This document shows positions 47,946-51,505 of a stretch of DNA of 64,000 bases, piece by piece. Source of the DNA: a virus. The notes under the pieces are model-generated. The model saw only the letters and a program-made list of their open reading frames with translations, had not been told where the DNA came from and made no database searches. Position 1 is the first letter of the stretch, and every line of letters begins with the position of its first letter. The translations under genes were made by a program, and so were the position numbers. The stretch is from positions 1 to 64,000 of IMG/VR virus record IMGVR_UViG_3300042261_002391, one strand, 5' to 3'.

Positions 47946-48423
47946 TATTTTTTACGATTATTCTTACGTGATTGTTTCTGCATTTTGTTACGATTTTGAC
48001 GTTTCTTTTTGTACGCAGCATCGAATTGATTAACAGTAACATTTCCCCGGTGAACAATTGGTTTGAATTTAATTTTCGATTGTTTCAACTGTTCAATCAA
48101 AAATTCACGTTTCTGTTCTTCAGTGAGTTCTAATAGTTCTTCAGCATCAGGTACTAATTCAAATTCCGGTGAGGAAATAAAACCGTCAGCTAATTCGTTT
48201 TTTAATTCATCAACAACAGGAGCATTACTTAATACATCCTGCAAATCATCTTTTTCTCGCATATTGTAATAATTTTTAATGTCATCTAAAGTTAACTCAA
48301 TATCTGGATATACCACCTGTTCAATGTCTCGTTTACCTTTAGTCATGTAATTTATTTTTGTGTAAAAATATAAAATGTTTTTTTTATATACAAGAAAAAA
48401 GGGAGCATTGCCCCCTTTTTTAT

Positions 48424-48867
48424 TTACTTCTTGTAAAAATCACCCTTTTCGGCTTTATACACATCATATGCATCGATTGCTATTTTACGTGCTGCTATAT
48501 ATTTTTTACGTGCTTCTTGAATTTTTTCTTCCTTAAGACTTATTTTTACTGATGGTGCTGGACTTTTAAAATCCTTATACACCTCACGTTGCAAGAAGTG
48601 AAAGAAACGATTAATTGTACGCAATGTTTGTTTATTAACACAACTATTGATATTATTCTTCAATTTCTTTCTTTGGTTGAGAGATAAGTTTGTAATCATT
48701 AATGATAAAATGTTTTCATTAATGTTGAAGTTATTCAATCTCCAATTTTCAATTGCAATTTTTTCATTGATTTTTTGTACTGCGGTGTTTACACCTTTTA
48801 CTAACTCGTTTACGCTTCTGTGATTTAATACGTTATTTTCTTTTACTAAAGTTTCCATAATATACAT
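48424..48867 (-). CDS. Basic hypothetical protein downstream of the amber leader
   Basis: 147 aa; structured 5' UTR. Confidence 0.75.
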   Translation of the reverse strand: MYIMETLVKENNVLNHRSVNELVKGVNTAVQKINEKIAIENWRLNNFNINENILSLMITNLSLNQRKKLKNNINSCVNKQTLRTINRFFHFLQREVYKDFKSPAPSVKISLKEEKIQEARKKYIAARKIAIDAYDVYKAEKGDFYKK

Positions 48868-48969
48868 TTTTTATTTTTGATTATAATTTATTGAACAATA
48901 ATAATATTCCAAATTCCGATATGGAATATTTGCGATTCTCAAATCACGAATCTGGTTATAATCAAACTA

Positions 48970-49005
48970 TTATGGAGGTCTGTTGATAATCTATGTGTCT
49001 TTCAT
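48970..49005 (-). CDS. Amber-interrupted leader peptide MKDT(TAG)IINRPP
   Basis: ATG AAA GAC ACA TAG ATT ATC AAC AGA CCT CCA TAA, followed by an 11-bp inverted repeat 48956-48966/48876-48886. Confidence 0.65.
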
Positions 49006-49009
49006 ACTT

Positions 49010-49348
49010 TTAATTTTTTAATGCTAAATCTAATGATTGAGTAATTTTACGCATCTCCGGAGTACCGTAGAAGCATACAGAGGTCATTTGGTTGTCGATG
49101 TCAGGTTCGTGGAACGAAATAACATCAGCACCATTAGAAACTAATTTTGAATAAAGTTTTTGGAGTTCATCTTCATTATTAATTTCAAGTACGATAATGT
49201 AATTAGAAGCTTCATACCATCTATTAAACAATTTATTATTTTTTATCGAAAAATCAGCAATGGCATGATTTGATTGTGCAATCATTAATCCATTACTTAA
49301 ATCATTTCTAACAACAATAACTAATTTATCAATCTACTTATCTTTCAT
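49010..49348 (-). CDS. Pth2-type peptidyl-tRNA hydrolase with in-frame TAG at codon 5
   Basis: MKDK(TAG)IDKLVIVVRNDLSNGLMIAQSNHA...FHEPDIDNQMT; the conserved KLVIVVRxDL strand lies upstream of the called ATG at 49285. Confidence 0.85.
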
Positions 49349-50251
49349 AACTAAACAATTTAATTTATTAATAATATTTTCGTTATATTTTATTCTAATC
49401 ATTCTTATTTTATTTTCAAAGCAATAGTTGTTTTTTATTAAGTCCCTTCTTTTAATGTTTAAAAATTCTGACTTCCCGCCAAATGCATCAATTGGCTTAT
49501 AATGTTGAATTCCATCAAATTCAATGACAATATTTAAATCAGGTAAATAAAAATCAAATCTAAGATTACCATTATCGATACAATTATCAAATGATTTTTC
49601 TCTTATATAGAGTATATTTTCATTGTTTAAAAATTCAGCAATAATAGATTCTCCTTTTGATTCATTACATATTGGACATCCAATTCCTCTCATGTGATGT
49701 ACTGGTGCTTGTTGAAACATACCGTGATTAGGACATATTATTGTAACTTTGGTTTTATTGTTAATATAATTAACCAATGAATAGTCATACTTTCTATTAT
49801 GAATATTATTCGATGTTTCAATAAATTCTTCCTGAGATAATTTAAGTTTATTAGCCTTATATTCAATTGCGCATTTAGGACAGCCTGACTTTTTTAAAAT
49901 GTGACTTTTAGGCGTTTGTTGAAATATACCGTGTTTTTTACACTGAATTTTTATTTTGGTATAATAATTTACATAATCAACCAATGTATAATCATACGTA
50001 TCGCCATGTATCTCGACACATTTAGCAATAATATCTAATGTGGTATGCCTATTTTTTTGCAAAATTTTAGTATACCCACATTTTTTACAACCTTGACCAG
50101 CTATATGATTTTTAGGCGTTTGAAAAAAATCGCCATGAATTGGACACGTGATAATTATTTTTGTAGTGTTATTAATATATTCGACTTTATTATAGTCATA
50201 CTTATCACCATGTTTTTTTATTGCATTAAGTATAAATTTACTAGTATTCAT
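49334..50251 (-). CDS. Homing endonuclease with three DUF723-like Cys/His repeats and a C-terminal Vsr/DUF559-like PD-(D/E)xK domain
   Basis: HGDKYDY...ICPxHGxFxQ..H..GxGCxxC x3; RFDFYLPDLNIVIEFDGIQH; GTATTTATA at 50264-50272. Confidence 0.85.
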   Translation of the reverse strand: MNTSKFILNAIKKHGDKYDYNKVEYINNTTKIIITCPIHGDFFQTPKNHIAGQGCKKCGYTKILQKNRHTTLDIIAKCVEIHGDTYDYTLVDYVNYYTKIKIQCKKHGIFQQTPKSHILKKSGCPKCAIEYKANKLKLSQEEFIETSNNIHNRKYDYSLVNYINNKTKVTIICPNHGMFQQAPVHHMRGIGCPICNESKGESIIAEFLNNENILYIREKSFDNCIDNGNLRFDFYLPDLNIVIEFDGIQHYKPIDAFGGKSEFLNIKRRDLIKNNYCFENKIRMIRIKYNENIINKLNCLVMKDK

Positions 50252-50290
50252 AATATCGTTTACTATAAATACTAAGTATTTGTCTAAAAG

Positions 50291-50353
50291 ATAACCAGCT
50301 TTTAAATCCTTTCTGGTAATCGTAACTAATTTAACCTAGTGTGTGTGTCTCAT
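50291..50353 (-). pseudogene. Displaced Pth2 N-terminus MRHTH(TAG)VKLVTITRKDLKAGY
   Basis: Matches the Pth2 N-terminal motif; frame continues without stops into the endonuclease ATG at 50251. Confidence 0.7.
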
Positions 50354-50440
50354 AACTTTTAGAGTTTAATTATAAATACTATTGAATTGCAAATGTAATG
50401 AATAATTTTTAATATACAAGCAATTTCAAATAAATTTTTG

Positions 50441-50514
50441 AGATTCTAGTGGGATTCGAACCCACGATTTTCAAGTTTTAGAGACCTGTGCAATAACCAC
50501 TCTGCCATAGAACC
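50441..50514 (-). tRNA. Amber suppressor tRNA(CTA)
   Basis: GGTTCTA/TAGAATC acceptor, anticodon arm CAGGT-CTCTAAA-ACTTG, T arm GTGGG-TTCGAAT-CCCAC, U73. Confidence 0.9.
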
Positions 50515-51505
50515 ATTTAATTATTAATCAACTACGATTTCAAAATCGACATCTTTTTCACTTGAGCTGCAGTAAAATCTAAAGCTATAACCCTTATCTT
50601 TACAGGCAGCAATTAATCTGTGAGCAAATTCTTCACCACCACCATCATTTTCAGGCATTAATACCTCAATATCGTCAATTATAATCGTCTTGAATGGCGG
50701 TTCTTTAATACTATCATCATATCTTGCAATGACGCATTTTTTAATAACTTCTTCTTTAACTGTAACATCATTAAGAAGATTAAATTTATTTAAAACACTT
50801 CTCACGTTTTTATGAAATGTATTGCCATTACGAAAACTTACTGATGTTTCAGTGGGTAACACACCTAATTTACCTTCTTTATTCAGAATTGAATTTGCAG
50901 TTCCCAATGCTTTCTCTAAACGAACTACATATTCAGCTATATTGTAGATTTTATTATTCCTATTAATCTTCATTGTCTTCAAATTTAAACATTTTTTTTC
51001 GTATTATCTCGTAGTTTTTAAAGCATAAGCACATTGTTTTAAACTCTTTGCCTTCTTTAGCTACTTGATAAATATATTTTTCACCTTCTTTAATTGTTAT
51101 CTGCAAACCATTATCAATTCCCCAATCTTTTCTTTCTTCCGGGGTACTATGACTCATTATATAAACATAGCCATCACATAAACGTTCGAATTTAGATATT
51201 GGATATGTTCGTTTTAATAATTCAAAGTTTTGCATAGAACTACATTTATATACGAAACAGATTGAAAAAGGTTACAAAATATCTTTAATAATTTCATCAA
51301 ACTCTTCTGCGGTCATACTTACTTCCATTCTAAGCTCAGAAATCTTTCTTATAGCAAACACTGCTTCGCCATAAGCATCTTCATAAATAACAAATAATTG
51401 ATTGTCGTATTCGCCGGAAAATGGCTTCAACAAAGTCATTGCTGAATCTTCGTCGTAAATTGTAATTGCTTTTCTTTTATTTGACATGTTGAGTAAATTT
51501 TTTTG

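Follow-up and report, generated by a model that had tools for sequence, protein, structure and literature searches.

A phage leader peptide interrupted by a stop codon is a probable translational switch that reports UAG readthrough

Introduction

Many phages that use the standard genetic code carry suppressor tRNAs without a known target, as genome papers such as the Summit phage announcement point out. In crAss-like and Lak phages that use code 15, a phage suppressor tRNA has been proposed to time gene expression (10.1101/2021.08.26.457843). The locus analysed here raises the question of what a tRNA with anticodon CUA might read in a phage that is not recoded. In this locus, the short frame MKDT-TAG-IINRPP-TAA stands upstream of a gene for a 144-aa protein, and readthrough of its amber codon would bring a ribosome to Arg-Pro-Pro-stop, next to RNA predicted to pair with the start of that gene. 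An earlier note on this DNA had proposed that such readthrough switches the downstream gene on. Having compared related loci and folded them with and without ribosome footprints, we consider it likely that the leader is a translational switch reporting whether UAG is read through.

Results

Source genome and genetic code

The window, meaning the whole stretch of 64,000 nucleotides that was analysed, is the first 64 kb of an 88.5-kb phage contig with 32% G+C, nearly all of whose genes lie on the minus strand. A 339,914-bp contig encodes a protein identical to the 144-aa protein, indicating that the window comes from a fragment of a huge phage. The sequencing runs that matched at least half of the stretch's sampled words came from freshwater or lake-water metagenomes only. 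Shine-Dalgarno sequences were absent and this, together with a relative among Tenacibaculum phages, fits a Bacteroidota-type host. A blastn search of 48300–49400 against phage records gave zero matches, and Rfam found tRNAs and nothing else over the window, which contains a large tRNA array with a CUA-anticodon tRNA among its members (ARAGORN, Rfam).

The window phage uses the standard code and is not recoded. Long ORFs ran unbroken under table 11 across the contig with no in-frame TAG, and TAG was an ordinary stop in 13 of the 89 genes of the window genome. A complete 328-kb relative, G005, also uses the standard code, with TAG closing 18 of 314 genes, and yielded 259 vs 281 ORFs of at least 150 aa when tested for code 15 (TAG read as Gln); neither genome displayed the many in-frame TAGs or the large coding-density gain expected of code 15. 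The pattern of an ATG, a few codons, a stop and a long ORF was not enriched for TAG genome-wide (TAG 27, TAA 55, TGA 22), so amber gating is local rather than a general style of start. The only gated items in the window genome and G005 were the leader and a PTH2-like gene.

The leader and its neighbours

The unit comprises the following elements.

49010–49348, minus strand: PTH2-like gene, itself amber-gated (ATG 49348, MKDK, TAG 49336–49334, then IDKLVIVVRNDL), assigned by profile match
48970–49005, minus strand: leader uORF MKDT-TAG-IINRPP-TAA, 12 codons counting the stop, with a second stop, TAG, at 48969–48967
48991–48993, minus strand: gate codon TAG (leader codon 5); TAG in relatives, TAA in two tRNA(UUA) loci
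48973–48981, minus strand: Arg-Pro-Pro codons AGA CCT CCA, a putative termination-arrest motif conserved across 36 leaders
48956–48966, minus strand: 5' arm of an 11-bp repeat, TTTGATTATAA, the inner extension of the closing helix
48876–48886, minus strand: 3' arm of the 11-bp repeat, TTATAATCAAA, a perfect complement (RNAfold)
48424–48858, minus strand: regulated gene for a 144-aa family A protein, METLVKENN..., its probable start set by those of homologs
48395–48421, minus strand: intrinsic-terminator-like hairpin and T run at the end of the unit, the only terminator-like site in 48300–50600

Everything that the earlier note had read directly from the letters was confirmed. The frame MKDT-stop-IINRPP, followed by TAA-TAG after readthrough, held at every codon position (ATG 49005–49003, AAA, GAC, ACA, TAG 48993–48991, ATT, ATC, AAC, AGA 48981–48979, CCT 48978–48976, CCA 48975–48973, TAA 48972–48970, TAG 48969–48967), as did the perfect 11-bp inverted repeat straight after the leader stops; the further hairpins said to lie within the repeat are present in the RNAfold minimum. 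The start of the next gene needed revision. The note had given that gene as 48424–48867 with the stem ending 8 nt before ATG 48867, a distance that is correct, but all homologs of the regulated protein start with MET and ATG 48867 is ATA in ~95%-identical relatives from two metagenomes, so the start is probably ATG 48858.

The leader peptide is only 10 residues long (MKDT-x-IINRPP), and we found no hydrophobic segment or export or insertion signal in them. The uORF sits 111 nt upstream of the regulated gene, and its ATG lies 4 nt past the stop of the PTH2-like gene (49005–49012, TAA-AAGT-ATG), a spacing that is not kept in all loci. Re-initiation after the PTH2-like stop may deliver ribosomes to the leader, in which case leader translation itself would depend partly on suppression. 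Between the PTH2-like gene and the regulated gene there was no promoter-like site of sigma-70 type and no terminator-like site; the scan covered sigma-70-type promoters, and one of another type may lie within the 111-nt spacer. The regulated protein is predicted to be all-helical, with a helical bundle and a long helix (pLDDT 89). For it and for a second family of regulated proteins described below (families A and B), searches of Pfam, PHROGs, NCBIfam, PADLOC, PDB sequences and the ESM Atlas gave no function beyond a generic helical bundle, and structure-level searches (Foldseek against pdb and viral sets, VIA-align wide) gave nothing informative.

Taken from the window sequence alone, the 11-bp repeat and the fold are not beyond chance. 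Ten pairs of the repeat are A-T, perfect 11-bp seeds occurred 7.2 ± 3.3 times in dinucleotide-shuffled windows against ~24 distinct ones in the actual window, and the whole fold of the locus had z = −2.0 (RNAfold). The case rests on comparison with other loci. A tRNA-like reading of the 91-nt structure was also tried and dropped, as ARAGORN calls no tRNA in it.

A family of stop-gated leaders

We compared ~40 distinct phage loci containing 36 distinct leader sequences. The first loci were retrieved solely by protein similarity to the flanking genes, and later ones by scanning DNA for the pattern and by two alignment-based retrievals. Outside the loci compared, the regulated protein has further relatives at 84% and 56–58% identity; the metagenome scan returned relatives at 52% identity or less only. 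Every locus retrieved through flanking-protein similarity had a homologous leader, and the leader occurred once per genome. Examples, with a slash for each stop codon, are MKPYL/IIRPP/, MIMS/TRPP/, MRHL/MTTRPP/, MKNT/VDIRPP/ and MKDT/VNIRPP/, alongside the short forms MF/IKPP/ and MS/VKPP/ and a GP variant, MKDT/VRQRGP/. R-Y-P-P was seen in a single leader (L133).

The 36 distinct leaders conform to M-x(1-4)-TAG-x(1-4)-[R/K]-P-P-TAA, with synonymous codon changes. Arg is encoded by AGA (19), CGA (4) and AGG (1), Lys by AAG (9) and AAA (3), and all four Pro codons are in use for the first Pro; these codons fall at unpaired positions outside the helix described below. This synonymous variation suggests that the residues past the TAG are under peptide-level selection. 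In the ~95%-identical relatives, the sole change in the leader is ACA to ACT, which is also synonymous. When the count was anchored on PP-stop alone, the first in-frame stop upstream was TAG, with an ATG shortly before it, in 31 of 32 motifs ahead of homologous genes, compared to a 13% background share of TAG among stop triplets there. The terminal stop was TAA in 36 of 36 leaders. Because CCA-UAA can base-pair with UUA-UGG, some of the conservation at Pro-stop could reflect pairing rather than arrest.

Leaders precede two protein families, A and B. We detected no relation between these families (hhalign probability 1.2%), and their shared METxVK start is explained by the overlap of the helix 3' arm with their first codons. 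Two pattern matches (L017 and L023) were rejected as chance; they lie within a RimK-like ORF and have neither pairing nor tRNA(CUA).

Some loci depart from the common arrangement. In some family B loci (L087, ~2300–2500), the amber 'leader' is continuous with the gene (MKHQH-TAG-VLSFDRGSPF...MKTT...) and neither a stop nor a helix is present; such starts would be gated directly, like the PTH2-like gene. Elsewhere, NUMOD4/HNH homing-endonuclease genes lie between the leader and its original target (L003 3967–4823, L034 705–1571, and the upstream regions of L080 and L085). In L034 the anti-start pairing has been taken over by the endonuclease's own ATG, and in L080 and L085 the 3' arm is still present behind the insertion.

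A covarying helix between the leader end and the next start codon

Minimum-energy folding placed a 9-bp helix outside the 11-bp repeat, formed by two arms.

48968–48976, minus strand: conserved 5' arm, U-CCA-UAA-UA (minimum-energy fold; alignment columns 34–46)
48854–48862, minus strand: conserved 3' arm, UAUU-AUG-GA, containing ATG 48858–48856 (fold and alignment)

Here the last Pro codon, the TAA and the next TA (48976–48968) pair with TATT-ATG-GA (48854–48862). We tallied this pairing across loci in a fixed register, in which, for p = −3 to +9, the position p after the T of the leader stop pairs with the position p before the A of the ATG downstream. This register had 211 of 266 cells paired, compared to at most 143 in slid registers, and shuffling of partners reached 211 in 5 of 2000 trials. 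A MAFFT alignment from leader to start gave 85.4% pairing vs 29–56% in slid registers. Helix covariation was 0.214 vs 0.117 (0 of 500 shuffles), with changes on both sides at five pairs, and RNAalifold predicted the outer helix de novo and no other. These comparisons indicate that the conserved functional element is probably the outer helix, which would sequester ATG 48858 directly.

The 11-bp repeat is identical in the ~95% relatives; distant contigs keep the leader and diverge from ~48960–48966, and neither the repeat nor the inner hairpins are kept across the family. The repeat thus appears to be a lineage-specific inner extension of the helix.

The spacer contains a locally conserved block, CCAGATTCG-TGATTTG-(A/C)GAATCGCAAAT, at window positions 48917–48950 and in homologous spacers (alignment columns 55–100), which could be a hairpin or a protein-binding site. 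TTCGCAA/TTGCGAA half-sites recur in the spacers of many loci, and this motif showed no enrichment elsewhere in the genome.

Ribosome positions and access to the start codon

We folded 39 distinct loci with ribosome footprints as constraints. When the last Pro codon occupies the P site, a footprint spanning −12 to +13 nt covers the entire 5' arm. When the A site contains the gate codon, the P site is 15 nt or more upstream of the 5' arm in every variant and 21 nt upstream of the helix in the window. The mean probability that AUGG is unpaired was 0.15 in the free mRNA (median 0.00). Placing the ribosome on the gate gave 0.16 and placing it on the terminal stop 0.43, while a control footprint positioned 40 nt downstream gave 0.17. 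In 37 of 39 loci AUGG was more accessible with the ribosome at the terminal stop than at the gate (p = 7e-8). The corresponding values in the window were 0.00 for the free mRNA, 0.00 at the gate and 0.37 at the terminal stop, the last reaching only this level because weak alternative pairs form. Thus, a modelled ribosome opens the start codon when placed at the terminal stop and not when placed at the amber codon.

Gate codons and the anticodons of neighbouring tRNAs

The presumed reader of the gate codons lies farther upstream.

50440–50514, minus strand: tRNA(CUA), amber suppressor, class I cloverleaf (ARAGORN; Rfam tRNA 59.3 bits)

Of the other tRNAs that the phage encodes, tRNA-Cys resembles it most (74% identity), rather than tRNA-Gln. 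BLAST was too insensitive to find suppressor tRNAs in the relatives, and these were located with ARAGORN on the relatives' DNA. Most loci have a tRNA(CUA) no more than a few kb from the leader, often immediately past the family A gene, and G005 contains a single tRNA(CUA) next to a single leader.

Gate and anticodon change together. Over 63 distinct PTH2-like starts, the pairs were TAG/CUA in 45, TAA/UUA in 2 and TGA/UCA in 1, with 0 mismatched; the TGA/UCA pairing concerns the PTH2-like gene only, at one locus. In both contigs with tRNA(UUA), TAA serves as the gate of the leader and of the PTH2-like gene alike, and the anti-start helix is intact: L091 (881–955, 2347–2385) has the leader MKET-TAA-IKIRSP-TAA-TAA and the PTH2-like start MT-TAA-IKLV, and L160 (4312) has MKET-TAA-IKNRSP-TAA and MK-TAA-VKLV. 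This swap is in our judgement the strongest single result for a linkage between gate and anticodon, although the leaders of the two ochre loci are related and both loci may stem from a single evolutionary event. The ochre module thus occurs on two independent contigs and consists of tRNA(UUA) with a PTH2-like gene and a leader that are both TAA-gated; the leaders end in R-S-P-stop and likewise have TAA as terminal stop (doubled in L091). In a locus with tRNA(UCA) and 51% GC (L012), the PTH2-like gene is ungated.

The PTH2-like neighbour

The gene upstream of the leader appears to carry a gate of its own. As an ORF opened after the TAG (49010–49285), it matches PTH2 from profile position 19 only; once residues across the TAG are included, the match starts at profile position 2, and the stretch from the TAG to the next Met encodes the domain's first strand. 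The protein scored 25.9 bits against Pfam PF01981 (cut-off 23) and 37.6 bits against TIGR00283 (cut-off 82), and it is best described as a distant PTH2-like protein with putative hydrolase activity. Profile searches for this family used the tighter of two alignments, the diverse one being too variable. An ATG followed by 1–7 codons and a TAG, without another start ahead of the domain, was found in 38 of 46 distinct homologs, and the gene almost always occurs within the module. Standard annotation misses the real N-terminus of such genes. In the cultured Tenacibaculum phage pT24 (L214, NC_049383, coordinates 191520–191593 and 194137–195036), a tRNA-Sup is annotated and a PTH2-like gene opens with ATG AAA TAG (MK-TAG-ITKNS...); the GenBank CDS of this gene, gp293, begins downstream of the first strand of the domain, leaving the gate unrecognised. 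No PP-stop leader was present in the 7.3 kb of pT24 examined.

In the window, a homing-endonuclease-like gene (49334–50251, minus strand; DUF723 / CapR repeats, PHROG 559) splits an older PTH2-like copy, whose stranded start, MRHTH-TAG-VKLVTITRKDLKAGY (ATG 50353), lies upstream of the endonuclease. The endonuclease's last four codons and TAG stop at the same time supply the intact copy with its start and gate. From 50353 to 49010 there is one frame, interrupted by two TAGs only, so suppression could also yield fusion products. Some PTH2-like frames in other loci have a further stop after ~31–32 codons (L002 461, L087 3394, L092 2823, L101 1483).

Proposed mechanism and alternative explanations

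We propose that, in the free mRNA, the leader end (last Pro codon, UAA and next bases) would be paired with the next start, hiding AUG 48858, with the 11-bp inner stem reinforcing this helix in the window phage. Charged tRNA(CUA) would compete with release factor at the UAG. Should release factor win, the ribosome would depart when its P site is still 21 nt upstream of the helix, which would stay shut. Should the phage tRNA decode the UAG, the ribosome would continue for six codons to Arg-Pro-Pro-UAA, where slow termination after Pro-Pro would make it dwell at the terminal UAA. The footprint of this dwelling ribosome would hold the entire 5' arm, exposing the start codon and allowing the 144-aa protein to be made. 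For the PTH2-like gene the gate would be simpler, a UAG as the fifth codon of its own frame. The comparison shows the parts and their conservation, the covarying helix, the geometry and the tie between gate codon and anticodon; we infer the readthrough, the stall and the induction of the regulated gene. The claim of the earlier note that only a ribosome passing the amber frees the next gene is favoured by leader conservation, the covarying helix, constrained folding and the tRNA linkage, and the start does appear to be hidden by a helix; the note, however, had assigned this role to the 11-bp stem and missed the outer 9-bp helix, which is the one that is conserved and covaries.

An arrested readthrough ribosome could instead act through A-site mRNA cleavage, tmRNA rescue or peptidyl-tRNA drop-off, so that the leader would control mRNA fate or tRNA recycling. 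Drop-off is favoured by very short ORFs, as in the bar minigenes of phage lambda, which promote peptidyl-tRNA drop-off. This possibility would tie the leader to the adjacent PTH2-like hydrolase, a nearly constant member of the module, and in E. coli arrest at Pro-Pro-stop is followed by cleavage of the mRNA in the A site and by ssrA tagging (PMC3834316). It leaves unexplained why the 3' partner of the leader end is always the next start codon and why the pairing covaries, and cutting at the leader stop would remove the 5' arm too and still de-repress the gene. We consider it unlikely that cleavage or drop-off is the main role of the leader.

It is considerably less probable that the leader is translated without its stop acting as a sensor, with the helix a constitutive damper or mRNA-stability element and the tRNA nearby through synteny. 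The shortness and A/U-richness of the helix in the window, the fold z-score of −2.0 and the ~7 chance 11-bp repeats per window would all suit such an element. Synteny would not account for a TAG gate in 31 of 32 motifs against a 13% background, nor for a gate that turns to TAA exactly where the tRNA is UUA; moreover, the post-gate residues appear to be under peptide-level selection, and a ribosome at the gate leaves the helix untouched.

We regard as improbable, more so than the damper, a transcription attenuator of the trp or his kind, in which the leader ribosome would choose between terminator and antiterminator: no T run stands behind the 3' arm (GGAAAC comes next), 48858–49010 contains no terminator-like site, and the 3' arm is the start codon itself. 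Least credible of all is a functionless short frame derived by homing-endonuclease traffic from a duplicated PTH2-like 5' end, an idea that draws on the resemblance of MKDK-TAG-I... to MKDT-TAG-I..., on three ATG-x3/4-TAG starts within 1.4 kb and on the endonuclease gene that split the PTH2-like gene and left its N-terminus stranded, but which in our view is already refuted by the leader family, as leaders with RPP-TAA and an anti-start helix occur in dozens of loci without that endonuclease, precede two unrelated protein families and have no PTH2-like similarity past the gate.

Discussion

The leader resembles known arrest-based regulators in its parts and differs from them in its input. SecM-secA, MifM-yidC2, ApdA/ApdP and uDF_RQH-secDF2 likewise have a Pro-containing arrest motif at the end of a uORF (PMC10987492, PMC10951233), and in systems of the SecM, MifM and Apd type the next start is hidden in a helix until an arrested ribosome melts it, as our folding models predict here. 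Those uORFs encode long peptides with a secretion or membrane signal and sense Sec or YidC, whereas the phage leader has 10 residues and no signal. Their R-A-P-P motif acts during elongation, whereas R-P-P-stop would act at termination, with UAG readthrough as the input. RAPP arrest occurs between RAP in the P site and a Pro-tRNA occupying the A site, at the motif R-A/G-P-P (PMC10951233); the N-R-P-P-stop of the window has no residue between R and PP and lies outside this definition. Precedents for a stall at the stop are the C-terminal Pro-Pro of E. coli, which hinders termination 'in all genetic contexts tested' (PMC3834316), and Bacteroidota uORFs ending in NSP-stop or NAP-stop, which toeprints show to arrest while the A site contains the stop codon (PMC10987492). 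The latter share with the phage leaders a C-terminal Pro followed by a stop, and our ochre-gated relatives end in R-S-P-stop, but they have no internal stop or suppressor tRNA and regulate secA or secDF.

Sensors of stop-codon decoding also have parallels. When a UAG was engineered into the tna leader, downstream expression likewise required tRNA(CUA)-dependent translation beyond it (PMC6412442); that man-made construct acts on transcription, through Rho/rut masking, and relies on an orthogonal synthetase pair, whereas the phage leader is natural, translational by our model and encoded beside its own tRNA. The trpL and hisL attenuators depend on a terminator hairpin with a U run and an antiterminator, which the phage leader does not have. 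In prfB, the gene for RF2, an early in-frame stop senses termination vs alternative decoding through a +1 frameshift within the gene itself; the phage leader is alike in its early-stop sensor, and instead uses a suppressor tRNA, a separate leader and an RNA helix. Code 15 phages have many in-frame TAGs in late genes, whereas the window genome and G005 keep the standard code and have gates only. Our literature search returned no description of a natural stop-gated leader, or of a stop-gated PTH2-like gene, beside a phage suppressor tRNA, and the preprint of Borges et al. (10.1101/2021.08.26.457843) makes no mention of leaders or hydrolases.

A wider reading, which we hold only tentatively and think possible but doubtful, is that the tRNA, the gated PTH2-like gene, the gated leader and families A and B form a self-contained circuit that acts on termination or suppression, with feedback setting the level of readthrough. 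If so, its products might restrain release factor or recycle tRNA, the circuit would be portable between UAG, UAA and UGA as the gate co-evolves with the anticodon, and it could be a stepping stone from the standard code to stop-codon reassignment in phages.

For suppressor tRNAs of standard-code phages, the leader and PTH2-like gates provide concrete co-evolving targets. If our interpretation is correct, this would be the first natural leader-peptide switch with stop-codon readthrough as its input, a natural counterpart of the synthetic design with a UAG in the tna leader, and would offer a compact natural sensor of amber suppression. It bears, too, on how phage recoding begins, which may be with a few regulatory gates first and genome-wide use later.
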